A DNA stretch of 64,000 bases from Candidatus Kapaibacterium sp. (GTDB lineage Bacteria; Bacteroidota; Ignavibacteria; Kapaibacteriales; UBA2268), in NCBI GenBank assembly GCA_963665665.1, contig OY762428.1, positions 2,255,007-2,319,006 of the forward strand, in the 5' to 3' direction. Under the pieces are notes generated by a model. The model searched no databases, was not told the origin of the DNA, and saw nothing but the letters and a program-made list of their open reading frames with translations. A program made the translations under genes and the position numbers. Below, in pieces: positions 44,037-60,337 of the stretch (position 1 is its first letter; every line of letters begins with the position of its first letter).

Positions 44037-44807
44037 TTAGAAATTATTCTCAACATCAAATGAACTAACCAGGAAACCCGGGTTCAGCAGTGATTCTTTG
44101 TTGTAGATAAAACGTCTGCCACCGTTCTCAACCATACCGCCAGCTGCTTCCACAACACCCTGGCCTGCAGCAGTGTCCCATTCCATGGTAGGCCCTCCCC
44201 GGAAATACAGATGGGCTTTGCCCTCGGCCACCATACAGAATTTCAGTGAGCTGCCCCTGGAAATTGACTCAACAACATTAAATTTCGCAAGGAATTCCTT
44301 TTCTGCTTCGCCGGCATGGGAACGTGACTGAACGGCGATTATTCCTTCGCCTGTGTTCTGATTAACTTTTATCTCTTCCTTAACTCCTTTGGTTATTTTA
44401 AAAGCACCTTCTCCTTTTGTTCCAATATAAATATCATCCAATACTGGCGCTGATACTATACCAAATACCGGGTAACCGTCTTCTATCAGGGCAATATTCA
44501 CAGTAAATTCGCCGTTACGTTTTATAAATTCCTTTGTTCCGTCCAGAGGGTCAACCAGAAAGAAGCGTCTCCAATTCTTACGGTTTTCGTAGGGAATTTC
44601 CTTCTCTTCCTCTGAAATAATTGGAATATCCGGGTAGAATTCTCTTAAAGATTCAGTAATAACCTTATTTGAAGCTTTGTCGGCTTTTGTAAGCGGAGAG
44701 TTATCCGATTTCATCTCAACTCCGAAATCATCAGTATGGTAAATATCCATAATAGCTTTTCCGGCTTCAATAACTATCTCAATCATTTTATCATTGTCAA
44801 TCAGCAT
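44037..44807 (-). CDS. cysQ: 3'(2'),5'-bisphosphate nucleotidase / inositol monophosphatase family (CysQ-like)
   Basis: The IMPase-fold motifs DPLDGTKEF and WDTAAGQGVVEAAGG; 256 aa. Confidence 0.75.
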   Translation of the reverse strand: MLIDNDKMIEIVIEAGKAIMDIYHTDDFGVEMKSDNSPLTKADKASNKVITESLREFYPDIPIISEEEKEIPYENRKNWRRFFLVDPLDGTKEFIKRNGEFTVNIALIEDGYPVFGIVSAPVLDDIYIGTKGEGAFKITKGVKEEIKVNQNTGEGIIAVQSRSHAGEAEKEFLAKFNVVESISRGSSLKFCMVAEGKAHLYFRGGPTMEWDTAAGQGVVEAAGGMVENGGRRFIYNKESLLNPGFLVSSFDVENNF

Positions 44808-46769: not shown

Positions 46770-48332
46770 ATGACAAATAATGTTATCAATCTGAAGAAAA
46801 AGATAAAAGATTTTAAAACCGAAGGAATCAAATTTTCCGTATCAGGCAGGGAAATTCTGCCATATTATGATATAATTGATTTTCTAAAAATATATTATCC
46901 GTTTATTAATTTGAAACAGATAGAAAGTTCATTTGGCAGTACATATATACCCTCTGATTTGTATGGCGGAAGGAAGTATAACCCTGAAAAATCATTTACT
47001 GACGGGCATATTGCAAAATTGGCTGAGAATAATATTAACTTATCTTTAACACTTACCAATCATTACTTTTCTCCGGATATTTACGAAAAAAGTAAATATT
47101 TACTTGAGAAATACCATAAAGCCGGCAATTCAGTAATATGTGTAAATGATGAACTTGCAAAACAGATAAGGATTGATTTCCCGAAATATCAGCTCAGGGC
47201 AAGTATTATTAAAAATATAAATACTTTGAAAAAAGTTGAGGAAAATCTGGAAATATATGATTTTATTGTGATACCCATGGATAAAAATGACGATGATGAA
47301 TTTTTGAAAAGCCTGCCGGAAAAGAAAAAAATTATGCTTTTTGCCAATGCATCATGCGCTTATTCATGCCCGACAAGAACCTGCTATAAAGGATTTTCGG
47401 AGGTAAATAGAGGTGGCGATCAGGTAAATCTTTGCTCAAGAAATAAAGTTGACAGATTGAACATGGGGCTTGTATTTTTTGATGTGCTGAAATTCAGGGA
47501 TATGGGATTTGATTATTTTAAACTTGTTCCTTTGAAACAATATAAAACTAATGATGTAATAAAATTTTACAGCGAAAAAAGACTAAAACAAAAAATTAAT
47601 TTTAATGAAAAAAACATGTTTTATTTGTGTTCATTCCCAAAATCCGGGAGGACATGGCTGCGCTTTATACTGGCAAATTATATTAATCTATATTTTAAAA
47701 CCGACGAAAAAATTAACCTTAACAATATGTTTGAATTCATTCCTAATAATATTTACGGAGGGCAAAAAGGTTTTGCCAGATTCAGATATTATAACAGGCC
47801 GGAAATACCACTAATTTTATCTACCCATGAGAAATACAATCCGAATATTTTCAGTGAAAAAAGAATAATATTTTTAAAAAGGAACCCTTTGGATACGATA
47901 GTATCATACTATTTTCATATTAAAAATGATCCGGGATATCGGGGAAATATAAGCGAATTTATAAGAGATAAAAAATTTGGTATCAGGTATCTGAAAAGAT
48001 ACTATAAATTATGGGAAAAAAATCTGAATAATGAAAGTCTTATTATAAGCTATGAGGATATGATAGATGATATTGAATCTGTTATCATCAATGTTTTGAA
48101 TTTTATTAATATTCAGGTTGATAATGAAATATTGAAGGAATCAATTAACAATTCTGATATTAATAATATGAGAAATTCAGAAAATCTGGTTAAAATCCCT
48201 GACATGAATGAAAGTGCCGTCAGGGTAAGAAAAGGAAAGACAAATAATTACATGAATTATTTGTCTGAAGAGGATATTAAATATTGTAATGATATTTTAG
48301 ATGTAAAATTACATAAACTATTGGAAAAATAG
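46770..48332 (+). CDS. two-domain protein: unknown Cys-containing N-terminal domain fused to PAPS-type sulfotransferase
   Basis: The C-terminal half carries the 5'-PSB motif FPKSGRTWLRFIL and the 3'-PB motif LKRNPLDTIVSYYFH. The N-terminal roughly 270 aa (..ANASCAYSCPTRTCYKG..) has no recognisable family. The gene converges on the lasso precursor gene. Confidence 0.65.
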   Translation: MTNNVINLKKKIKDFKTEGIKFSVSGREILPYYDIIDFLKIYYPFINLKQIESSFGSTYIPSDLYGGRKYNPEKSFTDGHIAKLAENNINLSLTLTNHYFSPDIYEKSKYLLEKYHKAGNSVICVNDELAKQIRIDFPKYQLRASIIKNINTLKKVEENLEIYDFIVIPMDKNDDDEFLKSLPEKKKIMLFANASCAYSCPTRTCYKGFSEVNRGGDQVNLCSRNKVDRLNMGLVFFDVLKFRDMGFDYFKLVPLKQYKTNDVIKFYSEKRLKQKINFNEKNMFYLCSFPKSGRTWLRFILANYINLYFKTDEKINLNNMFEFIPNNIYGGQKGFARFRYYNRPEIPLILSTHEKYNPNIFSEKRIIFLKRNPLDTIVSYYFHIKNDPGYRGNISEFIRDKKFGIRYLKRYYKLWEKNLNNESLIISYEDMIDDIESVIINVLNFINIQVDNEILKESINNSDINNMRNSENLVKIPDMNESAVRVRKGKTNNYMNYLSEEDIKYCNDILDVKLHKLLEK

Positions 48333-48344
48333 TTATTATGATAT

Positions 48345-48470
48345 CTAAGAAGTATGATAAGTATCGCTTTCGCCATCAGTTTCAGGTGGTGAAGAAATAT
48401 TTCCATCAGTATCGCTTGAATCAAAATCAATTACCTGTGGCTTTTTCCATTCTTTTTTATTGTCTTTCAT
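48345..48470 (-). CDS. lasso peptide precursor (A) - 41 aa, not in ORF track
   Basis: Manual translation of the minus strand gives MKDNKKEWKKPQVIDFDSSDTD/GNISSPPETDGESDTYHTS. There is a Lys-rich leader with Thr at -2, a core starting with Gly, Glu at core position 8, and a C-terminal ...YHTS. Compare my recollection of the paeninodin precursor, MKKQYSKPSLEVLDVHQTM-AGPGTSTPDAFQPDPDEDVHYDS. The ORF lies 70 bp downstream of the cyclase gene on the same strand. Confidence 0.6.
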   Translation of the reverse strand: MKDNKKEWKKPQVIDFDSSDTDGNISSPPETDGESDTYHTS

Positions 48471-48540
48471 AATCAATTCTTTTTTTTTAAATATATATCA
48501 ACTTAATCTGGATATAATATACTTAATTGTACAGTTAAAT

Positions 48541-50490
48541 TCAAATTTCTATTTGTTCAATAAATTTAATAGTAGCTATAGTATGCAGAATCAGCTTTGT
48601 TGTTTTTGAAAACAGATCCTGAGTATATTTCTCTGATTTTATATTCTCAAGAGTTTCTGATATTTTATTCTTATCGAATCGAATAATTCCATCATTGCTA
48701 TATGTATTAATAACTTTTTCAGTCCTGTTCATATCCAGTAAAACGCGATATGAAAGATCCTTTGCCTGCTTGCCGCGTTTGGTATTGCTAAGAACTTTTT
48801 CGGGCAATTTTCCTTTCATAGCGCTTCTGATGAGATAACGTCCGATACCTTCGTGTTTGAATAATCCAGCAGGTATTTGTTTTGTAAATTCGCTAACGCG
48901 CCTATCGTTTGTGGCATCCCTGGTTTCAATTTTATTTATTAAATTATAATCAATATTACTATTAGATCCTGTATTGGATATATGTTTTTCAAGTACTTTC
49001 CTGTTTTCGAAATTATTCAATTTATTATTTCTGTATTTAATAGCAGATTTGGCTTTTAACTGGTTCAGATGTTTATCTATTAATTCGAATCTGTTCAGCG
49101 TTTCTTCGCAAAATGGAATCAGGTGATCCCTGCCAAGAGATTCATGTAATTTTTTCGGGAAAAGACCTGAAAGCTTTGTTTTAGTTATTTTGCGAATACT
49201 TCCTAAAGATGTTGTAAACAACGATTTATTTGTATGCCGGGATTCAGACTTCCATTCTGAAAATAATTCTATCAATTTATATTGTCTCAGCAGATCATGA
49301 TAAAGGCCTGCGCCTGTTCTGGAAATTGTTAAATTACCGGCCTGGCCGTTAAGAAGCACATTAACATTATCCCCGGCTGCAAGCTGCAATATCCGCCAAT
49401 GCCAGAAGCCGTTTTGAAAGTTAGAAGTGAATAGTTTGTTATATTTCAAGTCAATATCTATCGCGTCAATAGGGTAGAAATCCTTAGCGTTAACAAAGTT
49501 GTGAGCAATATCATCGGGATACATATCCAGGATGGATTGAACATAAGGGGTTTCATCAGAAATCGACTTGATTTTCGGGCATTTATCAGGGTAAGCCGGA
49601 ACAGAAGAATAGGAATATATCTTTTTCCCTTTTTTTCTTAGTTGATCAATTGCCAGTACAGTTGAAGAACTTGAATCCAGGCCTCCGCTCAGGTTAGAGC
49701 CTGTCCTTCCTTTTGTGCTAATTCTTTTAGATACAGCGTCGCTGTATATATCAAGAAAATGTTCAATATAATCATCGTTATTTTTATAATTGATCGGAGA
49801 TAAATTTTCCGGTTTCCACCAGCGTTCTTTTTTTTCTAATCCTGAAGAAGAGAAAATATAATTGTGGAATCTATTAATATTGAAAATATTTGTATAAAAT
49901 GTATCCTCATCGCCGGATTTAACCTGAAATGGCAGCATTCTGCAAATAAGATGTTCATAATTGACTTCGGGAGTAAAATCCGGTAGTTTAAAAAATGCTG
50001 TTATTGTTGAAGAAAAGTAAATTGCTTTCGATGTTTCATAATAATACAATGGATAAATGCCGCTATGCCCTGATAATATAATTATTTTCCTGTCCTGTTT
50101 GTCCCAAATCAGCGGCATTAAATCACCAAAGATATGATTGTTTGTATCAAATTCCCATTTTTCGAAAGCATGAAGATAAAGACTGATATCGGACAATTTA
50201 TCTATATCTGTTTTTCCGGCAAGGCCCAAAGAATTTATTAGATCATCCCTGTTGTCAATCCTCATTCTCCCGGCGCCGATATACCTCCCGGACGGAGATT
50301 TAACAGGTTGTTCTTCTATCGGATTTTCAGTAAGTATGTCAATGTTCATCTGCACGAGAGCAAAGTTCCCGTCAGTAAAATAGTTATAGCTGTCGTATTG
50401 AACATCATCATAAGCAGATCTCATTTTTTCCAGTATATCAATATCAGCCGGGCTGATATCCTTATTAAAAAAAGCAATTGTGATAGTCAT
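48541..50490 (-). CDS. lasso peptide cyclase (C protein), asparagine synthetase B homologue
   Basis: PP-loop SGGLDSSSS, a length of about 650 aa, and an Asn-synthase-like N-terminal domain. The gene abuts B2 and B1. Confidence 0.8.
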   Translation of the reverse strand: MTITIAFFNKDISPADIDILEKMRSAYDDVQYDSYNYFTDGNFALVQMNIDILTENPIEEQPVKSPSGRYIGAGRMRIDNRDDLINSLGLAGKTDIDKLSDISLYLHAFEKWEFDTNNHIFGDLMPLIWDKQDRKIIILSGHSGIYPLYYYETSKAIYFSSTITAFFKLPDFTPEVNYEHLICRMLPFQVKSGDEDTFYTNIFNINRFHNYIFSSSGLEKKERWWKPENLSPINYKNNDDYIEHFLDIYSDAVSKRISTKGRTGSNLSGGLDSSSSTVLAIDQLRKKGKKIYSYSSVPAYPDKCPKIKSISDETPYVQSILDMYPDDIAHNFVNAKDFYPIDAIDIDLKYNKLFTSNFQNGFWHWRILQLAAGDNVNVLLNGQAGNLTISRTGAGLYHDLLRQYKLIELFSEWKSESRHTNKSLFTTSLGSIRKITKTKLSGLFPKKLHESLGRDHLIPFCEETLNRFELIDKHLNQLKAKSAIKYRNNKLNNFENRKVLEKHISNTGSNSNIDYNLINKIETRDATNDRRVSEFTKQIPAGLFKHEGIGRYLIRSAMKGKLPEKVLSNTKRGKQAKDLSYRVLLDMNRTEKVINTYSNDGIIRFDKNKISETLENIKSEKYTQDLFSKTTKLILHTIATIKFIEQIEI

Positions 50491-50495
50491 ATTTA

Positions 50496-50825
50496 TCAGC
50501 TAAAGTATTCTACAACGGTGAATTGCCTCATGCCCTCGCGTCCGGTAACAATTCTGTTGCCGGAGCGGAGCCATGCATGAGCTTTCATTTTTTGATCATT
50601 ATCTTTCGCCACGCCAAAGTAGATGGTTGATTTTATTTTTCTTCTGCCAAGCATCCATTTTACGGTTAATGCTTTGTCATAGCATTTGGATTCCCAGGGA
50701 GATTCACGAAAGGCGCGATTTGCCGCCCTGTTTACTTTCATAATAATATTCTTTTCCTGAGCATTTAATTCCATTTTTTCGCTTTCTTTCCTTTTCTTTC
50801 CAATAAGGAAGGAATAGTATCTCAT
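50496..50825 (-). CDS. lasso peptide biosynthesis B2 protein (transglutaminase-like leader peptidase)
   Basis: ...WESKCYDKALTVKWMLGRRKIKSTIYFGVAKD....KAHAWLRSGNRIV shows the Cys/His (HAW) core of McjB-type B2 proteases. The track start is TTG; an ATG lies at 50825. Confidence 0.8.
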   Translation of the reverse strand: MRYYSFLIGKKRKESEKMELNAQEKNIIMKVNRAANRAFRESPWESKCYDKALTVKWMLGRRKIKSTIYFGVAKDNDQKMKAHAWLRSGNRIVTGREGMRQFTVVEYFS

Positions 50826-50938
50826 AGGCAGCAAAAGAATAATTACTCTGGCAAAAGCATCATTTATAAGGGCTTCGATAAATAGTAATTTATCTTCAAA
50901 AAGGAAGCCGTAGAAATTCCTTATTTTCCTAAAAATTT

Positions 50939-51220
50939 TCAGGACTTCACATCAATAAGTTTCATTTTTACGAGTTTTTCCAGAAATTCCGTTGTGTCTT
51001 TTTCGCATACTTCCCTGTCGATATTATATTCTTCGAGTAGTTTATTTACCAGGTCGCCAAAGCTTATTTCATTTTCAATTTTTGCCCATATTACTGATCC
51101 AATCTCGTCGAAACCATAGTATTTGCTGGTTTCTACGCTCATCATTACAGTCTGGTTGTCAATCTCGCTGCTGATAAAATCATCTTTCCTGATGATTATT
51201 GTATTGCCTGTTATTTCCAT
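50939..51220 (-). CDS. lasso peptide biosynthesis B1 protein (PqqD-like RiPP recognition element)
   Basis: 93 aa with the PqqD-family pattern ...SKYYGFDEIGSVIWAKIENEISFGDLVNKLLEEYNIDREVCEKDTTEFLEKLVKMKLI. Confidence 0.75.
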   Translation of the reverse strand: MEITGNTIIIRKDDFISSEIDNQTVMMSVETSKYYGFDEIGSVIWAKIENEISFGDLVNKLLEEYNIDREVCEKDTTEFLEKLVKMKLIDVKS

Positions 51221-51251
51221 GATATTTATCTATATGTTAATAAATGATAAA

Positions 51252-51301
51252 ATTCTTTACATAAGGAACGAACTCTGATAAGAAAACACGATTTTCTTTA
51301 C
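51252..51301. repeat. direct repeat copy (32-bp unit AACTCTGATAAGAAAACACGATTTTCTTTACA plus partial unit) downstream of Fic gene
   Basis: One full unit plus the preceding partial unit ttctttaca-taaggaacg are identical to the spacers in the 52383-52496 array. Confidence 0.7.
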
Positions 51302-51313
51302 AAAGAATAAAAA

Positions 51314-52375
51314 CTATCCGATTTTCAATAATTCCATCAATTTTTCATTGACATAATAATTCCCTGTGCCAAGCCGGTGTTTTGTCAGCAGGCCGTCATT
51401 TGCCATCTCGTTTAAATATTTTGCGGCGGTTATTCTTGATACTCCTAGATCTGTTTCAAGGAATTCAATTTTCGTATAAGGATGTTTGAATAAATTGTTC
51501 AGTAAATCCTGGCTGTAGAATTTATATTTTGAACGTATAATATTTTTATATTCAAATATCAATTCCCGGATATTTTTTATTAATACTATTGTTTCCAGGG
51601 AAGTTTGTTCAACACATTCAAGGATATAAATCAGCCAGTTTTCAAAAATATTGCTTTGCCTGACATCCTGTAACAGATTGTAATAATGTTCTTTGTTTAA
51701 TATAATATATCTGCTATGGTACAAGATCGGTAATTTTAATAGGTCTTTCAGAACAAGATATAACACATTCAATATTCTTCCTGTTCTGCCATTTCCATCA
51801 TAAAACGGATGAATGCTTTCGAATTGATAATGTATTATTGCCATTTTTACCAAAGGATCCAAATCAGAAATCGAATCGTCATTGATGAAGAGTTCAAGAT
51901 TTGACATAAGCTCAAGAATTTCATTCGGATCCTGGGGCGGAGTATAAACTATGTCTCCACTTGTATCATTTTTCAGCACAGTTCCCGGTACTTTCCTGAA
52001 ACCGGCAGAATTTTTTTCAAGTTCCTCCTGAATTTCAAGAATGGTATTTCTTGTTATCATCCCGCTTTCAGAAACCAGGGCAAAACCTTTCTTAAGCGCC
52101 GAACCGTAGTTTTGAACTTCTTTTGCGTTAAGGGAATCAAAACCGTCAAGATTCAGTTCGGATTTATACAGGTCATCGTGTGTTGTGATGATATTTTCTA
52201 TTGCCGAACTGTCTTTTGCTTCCTGAAGCCCCAGAGTATTTATTAAAATATTCTCATTGGGAATTGTTGTTGAAATACCTTTCAATTCGGCGAGCGCTCT
52301 GTGAGCAGAAGAAAGTTTTTTGAGAACTTTTACAGTCTCCAGTTCTACTTTATTATATGGTAATTTCTGTATCAT
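51314..52375 (-). CDS. Fic/Doc family protein (Fic_N + Fic core + C-terminal winged-helix)
   Basis: Fic motif HPFYDGNGRTGR and N-terminal Fic_N pattern (MIQKLPYNKVELETVKVLKKLSSAHRALAELKG). The first 16 codons of the track ORF start at TTG and are simply a translation of the upstream repeat array, so the start was moved to the ATG at 52375. Confidence 0.85.
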   Translation of the reverse strand: MIQKLPYNKVELETVKVLKKLSSAHRALAELKGISTTIPNENILINTLGLQEAKDSSAIENIITTHDDLYKSELNLDGFDSLNAKEVQNYGSALKKGFALVSESGMITRNTILEIQEELEKNSAGFRKVPGTVLKNDTSGDIVYTPPQDPNEILELMSNLELFINDDSISDLDPLVKMAIIHYQFESIHPFYDGNGRTGRILNVLYLVLKDLLKLPILYHSRYIILNKEHYYNLLQDVRQSNIFENWLIYILECVEQTSLETIVLIKNIRELIFEYKNIIRSKYKFYSQDLLNNLFKHPYTKIEFLETDLGVSRITAAKYLNEMANDGLLTKHRLGTGNYYVNEKLMELLKIG

Positions 52376-52382
52376 AATTTCA

Positions 52383-52496
52383 AACTCTGATAAGAAAACA
52401 CGATTTTCTTTACAAAGATACAAAACTCTGATAAGAAAACACGATTTTCTTTACATAAGGAACGAACTCTGATAAGAAAACACGATTTTCTTTACA
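52383..52496. repeat. three tandem direct copies of 32-bp unit AACTCTGATAAGAAAACACGATTTTCTTTACA with 9-bp spacers
   Basis: Exact copies at 52383-52414, 52424-52455 and 52465-52496. Each contains the dyad AGAAAA-n5-TTTTCT. The array lies immediately upstream of the Fic gene, between it and the sulfotransferase gene. Confidence 0.8.
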
Positions 52497-52499
52497 TAG

Positions 52500-53369
52500 T
52501 TAAACCAGAATATCTCCATTTTCAGAAAGGTATCCATATTTTTTCATTATTTCCGAATGGTTTGCGATTATTGATTCAACCATAGCATCGTTCAGCTGAT
52601 TTCGCCAGGCGCCCTTTTTGCCTTTGCGGAAGAAGGATTCGGATTTTGGATTCTTTTCCTTAAAGCCGTGCTCTTTTTCCATTTCTTTTAATTTGTCAAA
52701 TGTGCTTAGTCCAACTGCTTTTGAAATTTGCCCGTGCGTGTAATCGAAATCTGTAAATTCCAAAGCCCGTGTGAATTCTTTTACAGGATCGTCCTTCATA
52801 TCTTCATATCTCAAAATAATAACCGGAATTTTATCCTGCTCAGTCCAGCTTCTGATATGCAGGCTCCATGACAGGAGTTTTTGCCTAAGCTGGTTATGAA
52901 GAGTACCGTCGTTGGTACAAAAAGCGAAATTCTCGTTGTTCATATCCAGGATACTTTTATGAATCGGTTTATTTGAATGATGTGCAAAGGAACAGGCTAC
53001 ATCAAAAGGATTCCTTATAATATATACAGCTGAATGGCTAATTTCTTCCGGGAACATTGGCCGCCCGTCAGGTAGAAGTGTATAAGCGTCATGCGTTTTC
53101 AGGAATCGTTTGTCTTCTTCAAATTCATCGGCAAGGTGTTTGTATATATCCGGCCTTGCCAGGTCAATCTCATCCATTGTCAGATCGGAAGCGGCAGTTC
53201 CGGCCAGATCGTCAAATGTATCCCGGCTGCTGGAAATAGGGCCTCCAGTCAGGTTATTTATATCTGCCGGTTCAGAATAACCCATTACAAGATTTGTGAA
53301 AAATACTCTGAACCATGTGTTACCTGATTTTGGGTAGGAGGCAAGCCAGATTATTTTTTTATTTTCCAC
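52500..53369 (-). CDS. PAPS-dependent sulfotransferase
   Basis: 5'-PSB motif SYPKSGNTWFRVFF and 3'-PB motif IIRNPFDVACSFAHH; 289 aa. It apparently starts at GTG and overlaps the kinase gene stop. Confidence 0.8.
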   Translation of the reverse strand: MENKKIIWLASYPKSGNTWFRVFFTNLVMGYSEPADINNLTGGPISSSRDTFDDLAGTAASDLTMDEIDLARPDIYKHLADEFEEDKRFLKTHDAYTLLPDGRPMFPEEISHSAVYIIRNPFDVACSFAHHSNKPIHKSILDMNNENFAFCTNDGTLHNQLRQKLLSWSLHIRSWTEQDKIPVIILRYEDMKDDPVKEFTRALEFTDFDYTHGQISKAVGLSTFDKLKEMEKEHGFKEKNPKSESFFRKGKKGAWRNQLNDAMVESIIANHSEIMKKYGYLSENGDILV

Positions 53370-54273
53370 TATTAGCCTCCAAATCTTTTAGTATTGCGTC
53401 AACAATCATTGCAGGATCCGATTTCATCCTAATCCTGTTAAGTTTTCGTATAAAGATATCTTTGGAGTTTGCTATTTGTGTTAAAAAGATAAAATGTTTG
53501 TCCGGCTGTCCGGTTCTTTGAACAAATCTTTTACGGTATGTTGAATTTCTTAGAAATTTGATTTTCTTAATTGAATCAATTTCTGATATTTCAATATCTT
53601 CAAAAGGCCCCGGCTTTATAAAATATATTCCCATTACCGGCCTTGATTTTTCAATATCGTGTATTGATATTGGAATTCTGAATTTTTCCTGTTCTTCTCT
53701 TATCTTTTCGATATTTGAATAATCTGTTTTCAGCATTTTCAGGCTGTCATTCCAAAGTTTAATCTCTGAATGTCCGGGAATTATTGATATAATCCCATCG
53801 TCGTCTATAGTTAATAATGAAGTATCGTCACAAAGCAGGCCGTATCCTCTTTTTACAAATTCAGCGGCAATGGTGGATTTTCCGGCGCCTGATTTCCCTG
53901 AGAAAAGTAATGCCCTGCCATCGATTTCCACTGCGCTGGCATGGAGGGCGAATATTCCGCGCTGATGCGCCAGGGCCCCGAGAACTGATCCGAAAAGGAA
54001 TACTTTTAACTCGGATTCCGAAGTATCGGGATTAAGGTCAACAGTAATAGTCCTGCCGTCTTCAACAAGGAATCTTCCCACGCTTTCTAAGTTAAATAGA
54101 AATTTGCCCGGGGCTGCGGAATATAAAGGATAGACCTGTGCATTTCCGTTCAATTTTTCAGGTACGTCACCTTTGCGGATTATAACATCGCTTTCTTTTT
54201 CTGTTTCCGGAAGTCCGGAAAACTCGAATTCCGAGTCAAATACAAAACCGTATGCGTAATATTTTTTTCTCAT
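53359..54273 (-). CDS. HPr kinase/phosphorylase C-terminal-domain-like kinase (lasso peptide kinase candidate)
   Basis: P-loop GKSGAGKSTIAAEF followed by LLCDDTSLL, as in the HprK_C fold. It is co-located with the lasso B1/B2/C genes, as in paeninodin-type clusters. Confidence 0.75.
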   Translation of the reverse strand: MRKKYYAYGFVFDSEFEFSGLPETEKESDVIIRKGDVPEKLNGNAQVYPLYSAAPGKFLFNLESVGRFLVEDGRTITVDLNPDTSESELKVFLFGSVLGALAHQRGIFALHASAVEIDGRALLFSGKSGAGKSTIAAEFVKRGYGLLCDDTSLLTIDDDGIISIIPGHSEIKLWNDSLKMLKTDYSNIEKIREEQEKFRIPISIHDIEKSRPVMGIYFIKPGPFEDIEISEIDSIKKIKFLRNSTYRKRFVQRTGQPDKHFIFLTQIANSKDIFIRKLNRIRMKSDPAMIVDAILKDLEANSGK

Positions 54274-54279
54274 AGTATA

Positions 54280-55302
54280 TTATTTGGTTTTAATTTTTAA
54301 ATAATCAAAAACTATATAAAATGGAATTAAAGGATAATTTAGGTATCTGAATATTCCGGGAAATTTAATTTTTGATATATATGATATAGAATAAAAAGAT
54401 CCAAAAAATATTTTCAATTTAAAAAAAATGGATCTTTTCAATTTCATTTTATAAATAATAGAATCAACAATACTATTAAAAGTCTTGATATCATAGGGAA
54501 TCAGTATTCTTTTTACACAGAAATCACTTAATTTTCCATGAAACTCTATATTATCATTCAACTTAATTTTGTGATTATAAATATACGATAAAAGATTTAA
54601 TAAAGGGAAGTAAAGGCGTTCTAAATGATATCTTTCCGCAAGTTTCCCTGCTGCAAAAAACAAATCAGGACGATTCATGTATATAAAATGTATATCCCGA
54701 AGCCAAAATAGACGATTCCAGAAATGTATTCCTCCATGAATAATCAAAAAAAGAATATTTTCTGTTGATAAGGAGCTATAATCTACATAAATTTTAGATA
54801 GGTCATATTCAGTGTTAACATTTTTGGGAATCCAATTATGTTTAAATAATTTCCAATGAAGTTCAATTAAAATATTGGTTTTTGAACTAACAAATTTCAT
54901 CTGATTATTTCTGCGAAATAATTCATTAAAATTCTCTTTGTTGTAATCACTATAATCCTTATAAATTTTAATATTGTTCTCAGTTAAAACTTGTATAGCT
55001 TTATTGATATTTTTAAATTCAATCAGGATATCAATATCTCTGCTCATCCTATCCGCCGGATCTGAGTATAGAAGCCCGGTTATTCCCGGCCCTTTCAGGT
55101 TTCTGAATTTAATTCCATTAATTTCAAGAATTTTGGAAATTCGTTTCAATTCAGTATTGATAACAAGCATTTTCCGGGTTTCTATTTTAATCAGGCTATC
55201 TATTTGTGTCAATATTGACTCGCTGAGATACGAACTATATAATTTCAATTTTCTAAGTGCAGGAAGAAGCAGGCGATGCCTTCTGCCAAGCTTTACAAAC
55301 AT
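54280..55302 (-). CDS. nucleotidyltransferase family protein (PF14907-like)
   Basis: 340 aa; ...GLLYSDPADRMSRDIDILIEF is consistent with a polymerase-beta-like NTase motif. It is the first gene of the minus-strand cluster. The ORF stays open upstream of the ATG to about 55470, so the true start is uncertain. Confidence 0.55.
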   Translation of the reverse strand: MFVKLGRRHRLLLPALRKLKLYSSYLSESILTQIDSLIKIETRKMLVINTELKRISKILEINGIKFRNLKGPGITGLLYSDPADRMSRDIDILIEFKNINKAIQVLTENNIKIYKDYSDYNKENFNELFRRNNQMKFVSSKTNILIELHWKLFKHNWIPKNVNTEYDLSKIYVDYSSLSTENILFLIIHGGIHFWNRLFWLRDIHFIYMNRPDLFFAAGKLAERYHLERLYFPLLNLLSYIYNHKIKLNDNIEFHGKLSDFCVKRILIPYDIKTFNSIVDSIIYKMKLKRSIFFKLKIFFGSFYSISYISKIKFPGIFRYLNYPLIPFYIVFDYLKIKTK

Positions 55303-55651
55303 CTGCCAGTCGAAACCTTTTTCAAGAAAATTGATAATAATATCTTCACGATAAGCTTCCGGGTGTTTTGTCAGCTCGATTAGTAAGATAAGTTCCTTAT
55401 TTGCATCATCTGTAAAAATTTTGATATACCTGTATATTATAGTTATAATATTACAAATATAATAAATACAATGTTACGCATAACAAATATAAGATTGAGT
55501 TTATTCCGAAGTGAAAATTAGCTGATAAATATATTCATTGCCTTCTGTTATACAAAACCGGGCAATTATCAAATATTTCTAAGCTATATCGTGAAGATTA
55601 ACTAATTTTGTATAAATATAGTTAATTGTTTTAAATAATATGGTTGTGATA

Positions 55652-59182: not shown

Positions 59183-60337
59183 TTAGATTCTAATACTGTA
59201 ATGTTTATCCGGATTATAATTAATTAATTCAGATGTTATTTTAATAAATTTTTCTATACCAACAGCAGCGATAAAATATAATATAGAAGTATGTCTTTCC
59301 TGAAGCATACCATCAGGAAAAATTAAATTAAAGATAAGGTTATCCTGATGTTTTTTTTTCAAATTATTTATTATATCTGAAGGTAAAATAGTTGCAGAAT
59401 AACGTGGGATCAAAGTAGGAGGATTAAATCCAAAATGTTCGAATAATGGATATAATAAAATTTCTTCACCAATCTCTGAAGGGCTGCAAATTTTCTTACC
59501 GGGCAACAGAATATCTATTAGGAAGGTTTTAAGCATAACAGCTGGTATAAGTTTATCAAGACTATTAATATCAGCTGTAAATTTGAGTAACTCATTATCC
59601 CTGATATATTCAAGATTATAAATCGAAGTTTTAGGATTAATATTCAATCCTTTTTTTGAGATATAAGAAAATGATTGACTGACGATATCAGTAAATTTTC
59701 CTGGATTATTTAATTCATCTGTTATAAAAAAATCTACAATTTCAGAATTTAATAATTCAGACAAATAAATATAATCGATGTTTTCATTTTCAAATAAATA
59801 TTGAAGATAATTCTTAAAAGCATAAATTATTGTTTTTCCAGGTTCATATATTTCAAACAATTTTAATTTAATATCATTATAATGCTTAAAACCGGAAAGA
59901 ATTGATATAATATTTTCAATTTGATCAATACTATCAGCTGGACAATCTCTATACTTAATTAGTTTTCTATTTTCTTTTGTTGAATCAGAAGGAAAATGCA
60001 TTTCTACTGTATCCATATTCTCATCTAATAGCTTAACGCCGGACAATTGCATATTATCAATGCAAAGATCATCAATAATTAATTTTCCAATTTTATTACA
60101 TTTAAGATAGGATATTAAGGAAAGAATTTTAAAATAGTTTGATAAAGTGCCACCGGCAAAAAAAGGCTTGATAATAGTAAATAGATTATCTTCAGATTGA
60201 GACAATTCTATATATGAATGAGAAATATTTAATGAAAAATCAGAAAAAATATCAGTTATGAAATTATCATTTTTTAGGAAATTATTAAAAAATTCCGGAA
60301 ATCCGGGAATTGACGAAAACTCTGTTCCTTCTATCAT
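59183..60337 (-). CDS. hypothetical protein
   Basis: A 384-aa ORF, AT-rich and Ile/Asn/Lys-rich, with no recognisable motifs. Confidence 0.4.
   Translation of the reverse strand: MIEGTEFSSIPGFPEFFNNFLKNDNFITDIFSDFSLNISHSYIELSQSEDNLFTIIKPFFAGGTLSNYFKILSLISYLKCNKIGKLIIDDLCIDNMQLSGVKLLDENMDTVEMHFPSDSTKENRKLIKYRDCPADSIDQIENIISILSGFKHYNDIKLKLFEIYEPGKTIIYAFKNYLQYLFENENIDYIYLSELLNSEIVDFFITDELNNPGKFTDIVSQSFSYISKKGLNINPKTSIYNLEYIRDNELLKFTADINSLDKLIPAVMLKTFLIDILLPGKKICSPSEIGEEILLYPLFEHFGFNPPTLIPRYSATILPSDIINNLKKKHQDNLIFNLIFPDGMLQERHTSILYFIAAVGIEKFIKITSELINYNPDKHYSIRI

Follow-up and report, generated by a model that had tools for sequence, protein, structure and literature searches.

Lasso peptide decoration in described systems

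Compact and very stable, lasso peptides attract interest as antibiotics and as frameworks for drugs, and the range of molecules that they can support grows with every new tailoring reaction. The closest described relatives of the locus presented here are the paeninodin cluster (padeCAKB1B2D of Paenibacillus dendritiformis C454) and the clusters encoding ThcoK-type kinases, where an HprK-like kinase accompanies a split B1/B2 pair, the cyclase C and a precursor which carries a WxxP leader and ends in a Ser that is phosphorylated by the kinase before cyclisation. In fact, the HprK-like kinases of such clusters phosphorylate the C-terminal Ser on the linear precursor (PMC8498205; PMC6993621; PMC13381572), the WxxP motif is nearly invariant in paeninodin-like precursors (PMC13381572), and HprK kinases together with nucleoside triphosphate (NTP) transferases were described in 2026 as typical secondary modification enzymes of these clusters (PMC13381572). 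A cluster of this kind is found in a stretch of 64,000 nucleotides of contig OY762428.1 from Candidatus Kapaibacterium sp., referred to below as the window, and the present work deals with three of its genes, encoding a nucleotidyltransferase (N), an HprK-like kinase (K) and a sulfotransferase (S1), and with a second sulfotransferase fused to a U32-like domain (S2).

The pseudomycoidin cluster (psmCAKB1B2ND, Bacillus pseudomycoides) also combines a kinase with a DxD-bearing protein of the nucleotidyltransferase family, PsmN, which was reported in 2019 to be required for the attachment of one or two hexoses to the phosphoserine of the peptide (PMC6993621). The DxD double mutant D134A/D136A was inactive, hexosylation being abolished, and PsmN may merely supply the substrate to a host glycosyltransferase (PMC6993621). 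The original prediction for the window stated that, among the decorations suggested by the three genes, only phosphorylation had established precedent, a statement which PsmN-dependent hexosylation of pseudomycoidin makes outdated (PMC6993621). N is likened to PsmN by description, and no statement that PsmN belongs to PF14907, the Pfam family of N, was found in the literature. Unlike N, which heads the cluster in the window, psmN lies between B2 and D, and no sulfotransferase is mentioned for that cluster; the pade cluster, in turn, has no PsmN-type nucleotidyltransferase gene (PMC6993621). The pade cluster also differs in its gene order, in having an exporter of the ATP-binding cassette (ABC) type and in its host, a member of the Bacillota, while here the host belongs to the Ignavibacteria/Kapabacteria group, the seryl-tRNA synthetase of the window being 65-72% identical to proteins of metagenome-assembled genomes labelled Ignavibacteria, Kapabacteria or Bacteroidota. 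The linear polyphosphorylated peptide clusters (Popov et al. 2026, PMC13381572) resemble the window in their HprK-like kinase, their NTP transferase and their discrete leader-recognition protein, but lack a cyclase and have a YxxP leader and a SipW-like signal peptidase, where B2, C and a WxxP leader are found here.

Genes for an HPr-kinase and for a sulfotransferase had already been noted in lasso clusters in 2014 (Letzel et al. 2014, PMC4289311). Moreover, as summarized in a review, some firmicute clusters have a putative sulfotransferase at their start and a nucleotidyltransferase near B2 (Zhu et al. 2016, cited in PMC8498205). To the extent that these sources present them, such clusters from firmicutes and anaerobes resemble the window in having an HPr-kinase homologue and a sulfotransferase, the latter at the cluster start, with a nucleotidyltransferase in some (PMC8498205; PMC4289311); they are gene-level reports, whereas the pairing of K and S1 is quantified here across many phyla and S2, with its fused U32-like domain, is present. 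The novelty that had been implied for the combination of kinase, nucleotidyltransferase and sulfotransferase was accordingly overstated, at least as far as these descriptions go (PMC4289311; PMC8498205, citing Zhu et al. 2016). This set of genes was known before, and occurs here in a phylum other than Bacillota. The conserved K-S1 pair and the U32-like fusion are concrete leads to chemistry not yet described for lasso peptides, and the cluster makes it possible to test what is sulfated and whether sulfation needs prior phosphorylation.

Organization of the cluster

We consider it probable, at roughly three chances in four, that N, K and S1 are secondary tailoring enzymes of a paeninodin-like lasso peptide pathway in an uncultured bacterium of the Ignavibacteria/Kapabacteria group. 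This assignment, already put forward in the original prediction, would have been contradicted by a kinase of the genuine HPr kinase/phosphorylase (HPrK/P) type or by a lack of co-conservation with the lasso genes, and it is maintained because neither was found.

The three genes are tightly packed open reading frames (ORFs) on the minus strand, at the head of a cluster with the order N-K-S1-[SoFic]-B1-B2-C-A. The stop codon of N (54282-54280) is separated by 6 nt from the ATG of K at 54273, and the stop codon of K (53361-53359) overlaps by 11 nt with the coding sequence of S1, which starts with GTG at 53369; the tight packing, the gap and the overlap are thus as previously described from the sequence. 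The trio was also said to appear co-transcribed ahead of B1, B2 and C, which is overstated: it does precede them, but it does not adjoin B1, a Fic gene of the SoFic type and a set of repeats lying in between. A scan for sigma-70 promoters and terminators gave counts not above those of shuffled sequence, and the Bacteroidetes-type promoter pattern had a single match, outside the cluster and below chance expectation.

Together with K, the remaining genes, all on the minus strand except S2, display the features of a paeninodin-like cluster apart from an exporter D: a cyclase, a split B1/B2, a WxxP precursor with a C-terminal Ser and an HprK-like kinase. B1 (50939-51220) is a leader-recognition protein of the PqqD type (Pfam PqqD), also matched by the NCBIfam model NF033536 (lasso_PqqD_Bac) with 87 bits against a cut-off of 80. 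B2 (50496-50942) is a transglutaminase-like leader peptidase (Pfam Transglut_core3), for which NF033537 gave 90.7 bits against a cut-off of 33, over residues 21-147 of the extended ORF. C (48541-50490) is an Asn-synthetase-like lasso cyclase with the Pfam domains Asn_synthase and GATase_7, whose best NCBIfam match is the lasso isopeptide cyclase NF033535, at 232.6 bits and under the equivalog cut-off of 525. The precursor gene A (48345-48470) encodes 41 residues (MKDNKKEWKKPQVIDFDSSDTD / GNISSPPETDGESDTYHTS), with a WxxPxV motif in the leader, Thr at position -2, Gly1, Glu8 and a C-terminal Ser. It follows C instead of standing at the cluster head, and the same holds for the related loci L013, L096 and L097 of the survey described below.

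Conservation of the kinase-sulfotransferase pair

A metagenome scan with an alignment of sulfotransferase relatives yielded at least 570 confirmed relatives, of which 80 loci, referred to by number, were kept, and the locus counts given here are based on those 80. For the pairing of K and S1, loci were counted whose sulfotransferase is at least 38% identical to S1. Of the 42 loci with enough upstream sequence, 38 have an HprK-like kinase gene as the immediate upstream neighbour on the same strand, and B1 was found within 900 nt downstream in 21 of the 41 with enough downstream sequence. In the loci with at least 5 kb on both sides, kinase, B1 and C were present without exception (9/9). By profile hidden Markov models (HMMs), kinase and sulfotransferase occur together in 54 of the 80 loci, and a PF14907-like gene accompanies the pair in 10 of the 21 K-S1 loci of at least 12 kb. 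Co-conservation of the trio with B1 and C, which had been proposed as a check, is seen across some 50 metagenomic loci.

The gene order of the window, N-K-S1, recurs in L026. On an unrelated contig, L002, the order is N-D-K-S1 with an identical 11-nt overlap between K and S1, and overlap or near-abutment of the two genes is also found in L012, L013, L096 and L097. A genome scan with a reduced kinase alignment gave at least nine loci, among whose named hosts are Sphingomonadales, Rectinemataceae (spirochaetes), Anaerolineae, Lysobacteraceae and others. The succession K-S1 is conserved across several phyla, and S1 is no occasional passenger. The near-obligate pairing also suggests that both enzymes act on one substrate, either successively or as a complex.

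The kinase

K (53359-54273, minus strand, 304 aa, ATG start) belongs to the HprK-like P-loop peptide kinases with a phosphoenolpyruvate carboxykinase (PEPCK) fold. Its match to Pfam Hpr_kinase_C is partial, covering the 45-residue stretch 109-153 with 34.4 bits against a cut-off of 33.3. The P-loop, GKSGAGKST, is intact, as originally read, and G129, G131, K132, S133, H111 and D149-D150 are invariant among 38 homologues and align with the catalytic region of solved HprK/P structures. K thus shares with HprK/P the P-loop, the catalytic His and the DD motif of the C-terminal domain.

The likeness does not extend further. The model for HPr(Ser) kinase/phosphatase, TIGR00679, gave 34.9 bits (cut-off 240) and that for HprK-related kinase A gave 47.6 bits (cut-off 200), all NCBIfam matches being far under their cut-offs, and no Hpr_kinase_N domain was found in K with Pfam. 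The AlphaFold2 (AF2) model of K, with a predicted local distance difference test (pLDDT) value of 94.5, was matched by Foldseek to PEP carboxykinases over both halves, with template modelling (TM) scores of about 0.55, and resembles HprK/P only across the P-loop domain, that is the C-terminal domain of 1KKL, the N-terminal half being PEPCK-like. Furthermore, the G[LIVM]H[AT]R[PA] motif of the His15 region of HPr (ptsH) was not found by a regular-expression scan of the six frames of the window, a motif scan carried out with no HMM. The neighbourhood is also that of a peptide natural product, and homologues of K adjoin lasso genes in every context examined. K, then, is not an HPrK/P of carbon catabolite control, a possibility that had been singled out for checking.

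With regard to its substrate, precursors end in Ser in 25 of the 27 K-S1 loci with a recognisable precursor, according to a manual reading of the candidate list. By analogy with the kinases of described clusters, K probably phosphorylates Ser19 of A.

The sulfotransferase

S1 (52500-53369, minus strand, 289 aa) is a sulfotransferase of the 3'-phosphoadenosine 5'-phosphosulfate (PAPS) type, with 97.9 bits for Pfam Sulfotransfer_1 (PF00685) against a cut-off of 22, and its GTG start is backed by the N-termini of homologues. The motifs YPKSGNTW, K-x-H93, R119...S127 and FFxxGxxGxWR are invariant across five cluster-associated relatives, the invariant residues being K14-S15-G16-N17-T18-W19, H93, R119, S127 and F246-F247...G250...G253...W255-R256. 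We take these to be, respectively, the 5'-phosphosulfate loop, the catalytic His, the 3'-phosphate-binding Arg and Ser, and the C-terminal RKGxxGxW motif.

The best solved relatives of S1 are Teg12, Teg14 and StaL (E-values of 7e-17 to 2e-11), followed by phenol sulfotransferases. Teg12, Teg14 and StaL are PAPS-dependent O-sulfotransferases on peptide scaffolds, and share with S1 the PKSGNTW and 3'-phosphate-binding motifs. They act on aglycones of non-ribosomal glycopeptides, at phenolic acceptors, while a ribosomal peptide is proposed as the substrate of S1 and Tyr is not conserved among the cores. A Tyr does stand near the C-terminus of the core in the window (…DTYHTS) and in its nearest relatives (…SYS, …NYS, …PYS, …TYS). 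From this C-terminal pattern and the likeness to Teg12 and StaL, O-sulfation of Tyr was considered as a conserved role of S1, and was rejected as a general rule because about half of the cores have no Tyr. In the U32-like sub-family, where all seven cores have a Tyr (7/7), Tyr O-sulfation is possible.

The nucleotidyltransferase

N belongs to the NTP_transf_5 family (PF14907), with 101.9 bits against a cut-off of 31.2, and has a DxD motif at D89-I-D91. Its ORF runs from the first ATG at 55302 down to 54280 on the minus strand (340 aa), within an open frame of 54280-55473. It had been pointed out from the sequence that the frame is open well upstream of the first ATG, which suggested a longer N-terminus, and homologues agree with this: about 40 residues of the extension align with homologues from L002, L014 and L015, E27 and L34 of the extension being invariant. 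The annotated 340-residue product is therefore truncated. Candidate starts of the longer protein are ATA at 55437, ATC at 55425 and ATT at 55419. Also, an ATGATG stands out of frame at 55409-55404; with one A more in the CAAAT that follows, it would be in frame as the start of N (MMQNKELILL…). The upstream region of N in L001, a contig related to the window (ENA ERZ21869602 ctg91415l), is the same but for two substitutions and likewise has no canonical start.

A proposed pathway

A sequence of steps can be put forward on the basis of these families. B1 would bind the WxxPxV motif of the leader, as expected from its family. K would then phosphorylate with ATP the side-chain hydroxyl of Ser19 on the linear precursor, possibly several times, as has been shown in homologues. 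S1, translationally coupled to K, would use PAPS to sulfate a hydroxyl group of that peptide; the acceptor probably lies in the C-terminal tail, rich in Ser, Thr and Tyr, and cannot be a universally conserved Tyr. N, having a DxD motif and a nucleotidyltransferase fold, would add a group to the phosphate, a hexose by the precedent of PsmN or alternatively a nucleotide. Finally, B2 would cut off the leader after Thr(-2)-Asp(-1) and C would close the ring between Gly1 and Glu8, while S2 would probably add a further decoration.

Alternative readings

Several observations count against a tailoring role of N, K and S1 in a working pathway, and most of them concern the integrity of the cluster. They could mean that it is a decaying or partly inactive remnant, in which the SoFic gene has broken the operon, the start codons of N and B2 are gone, and decorated peptide is produced in small amounts at most; we regard this as unlikely. 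Upstream of its ATG, the frame of N continues for 57 open codons, as far as 55473, among which ATG, GTG and TTG are all absent. In the same way, the homologous N-terminus of B2 lies upstream of the listed TTG, in a frame open for 39 codons with no canonical start. Nevertheless, ATA, ATC and ATT are allowed starts in genetic code table 11, and a CTG at 50942-50940, which is likely the start of B2, overlaps the stop codon of B1 as CTGA, suggesting coupled re-initiation at a non-canonical start.

The Fic/DOC gene between S1 and B1 (51314-52375 on the minus strand, about 1.1 kb; the ORF as listed spans 51314-52423) carries the Pfam domains Fic_N, Fic and SoFic-like_C and matches the SoFic defence model of PADLOC over its full length (E=1.9e-115), with 359 bits for NCBIfam NF046030, under the cut-off of 550. 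It is accompanied by a 32-nt repeat (TGTAAAGAAAATCGTGTTTTCTTATCAGAGTT), of which the window has four exact copies, against a chance expectation of none. Three of them are in tandem with a period of 41 on the 5' side, between S1 and the Fic gene (52383-52496, minus strand), and the fourth is on the 3' side (51271-51302, minus strand), after which come a 9-nt spacer and 10 nt from the start of a further copy. A search of the whole window against Rfam gave no match, so the repeat is not a known RNA. The Fic gene is absent from all other related loci examined, where B1 directly follows S1, which indicates a lineage-specific insertion, and with gene and repeats in this position the operon may be interrupted, or even split. 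No exporter gene D was found either: no ABC_tran or ABC_membrane gene is present among the ORFs of the window that were examined, nor in the near-identical contig over about 10 kb to each side.

The contig L001, about 97% identical to the window, bears on the same question. Its divergence is mosaic: the S1 region (52500-53500 of the window) shows about 10% nucleotide difference, and 47000-48500 and 59500-60000 are likewise divergent, whereas the kinase region (53500-54500) is 99.4-99.8% identical. Positions 10878-17750 of L001, corresponding to 47500-53400 of the window, contain over 40 indels of one base each, all of them in the cluster genes (47.5-52.7 kb) and none in the flanks. Frameshifts result in S1, B1, B2 and C, and, within 15680-16214 of L001, a GC-rich insertion of about 300 nt interrupts the last codons of C. 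The frameshifts suggest that the locus may be decaying in this lineage. Most of the indels are nevertheless in homopolymers (30/51) and may be assembly errors, so that they would be explained either by a cluster decaying in that strain or by faulty assembly of the region. In the precursor of L001 the leader is the same, but the core (…NSNVSNVDTDGGGTGVASPYITDS) differs, is longer and still ends in Ser. In the window itself, all other ORFs are intact and of full length, with conserved catalytic motifs, which speaks against a remnant.

A second group of unfavourable points concerns the acceptor. S1, and possibly N, may act on a sugar or small group attached to the peptide, or else on something unrelated, for instance a glycan of the cell surface, and not on the peptide directly, which we hold to be rather improbable. 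By manual reading of the core lists, about half of the K-S1 cores contain no Tyr, so that the acceptor site of S1 cannot be inferred from sequence. In the literature that could be searched, no sulfated lasso peptide was reported, and LppN, a related nucleotidyltransferase, had no activity in a heterologous host. Glycosyltransferase family 8 (GT8) genes are found in the related clusters L013 and L096, and a role of PsmN limited to feeding a host glycosyltransferase would also fit indirect action. On the other hand, S1 is tied to the kinase (38/42), while N occurs in about half of the clusters and glycosyltransferases in few, a patchiness which makes a dependence of S1 on glycosylation unlikely. 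Moreover, the nearest solved relatives of S1 act on peptide hydroxyls, and all nine loci with long flanks are lasso clusters.

Finally, that K is a genuine HPr kinase/phosphorylase merely adjoining the cluster is hardly credible, since the shared P-loop and C-terminal-domain similarity is its sole support, set against the score of 34.9 bits where 240 is the cut-off, the missing Hpr_kinase_N, the PEPCK-like N-terminal domain of the model, the absence of an HPr-like motif from the scanned window and the lasso clusters in which the homologues stand.

A U32-like domain fused to the second sulfotransferase

S2 (46770-48332, plus strand, 520 residues) converges on A and consists of a U32-like domain with a triosephosphate isomerase (TIM) barrel fold (residues 1-270) and a Sulfotransfer_1 domain (residues 285-516). 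The N-terminal 270 residues gave no Pfam match, and the Pfam U32 family was not matched even at E=10. A likeness to U32 proteins comes from the AF2 model (pLDDT 90.8), for which the top Foldseek match is 5D88, the U32 peptidase Mk0906 (E=6e-8, TM 0.62-0.69). The family of this domain has 53 members, in which Cys196, Cys200, Cys205 and Cys222 are conserved with the spacing CX3CX4CX16C, compared with CX6CX15CX3/4C in the U32 family (PMC6747719). The domain, either alone or fused to a sulfotransferase, was found only in lasso clusters with the K-S1 pair, namely those of the window, L012, L013, L015, L096 and L097.

Within the U32 family, UbiU and UbiV are oxygen-independent hydroxylases with 4Fe-4S clusters held by four Cys (PMC6747719), and no U32-type enzyme acting on ribosomal peptides was found in the searchable literature. 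By analogy, an attractive idea is that the U32-like domain might hydroxylate the peptide and the fused sulfotransferase might then sulfate it. A broader proposal, tentative and open to considerable doubt, is that the kinase-sulfotransferase pair could be an obligate module that decorates lasso peptides with phosphate as well as sulfate, on the C-terminal Ser or close to it, and that in the U32-like sub-family the fusion of a U32-like Fe-S domain with S2 would add oxygen-independent hydroxylation followed by sulfation. In any case, the U32-like family is a small group of candidates for new peptide-modifying enzymes.

At 2 kb from S2, a gene for CysQ, a 3'(2'),5'-bisphosphate nucleotidase, is located at 44037-44807 on the minus strand (TIGR01331, 301.9 bits). 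This enzyme clears 3'-phosphoadenosine 5'-phosphate, the by-product of sulfotransferases, and its closeness to S2 may be a coincidence. Among the related clusters with a U32-like gene, L096 (6276-16058) has the order K-S-B1-B2-U32-like-GT8-S-S-(radical S-adenosylmethionine (SAM)/SPASM-sulfotransferase fusion)-C-A; sulfotransferase domains are present in four of its proteins, and the core peptide, GYGAPGADIGTYS, has just 13 residues.

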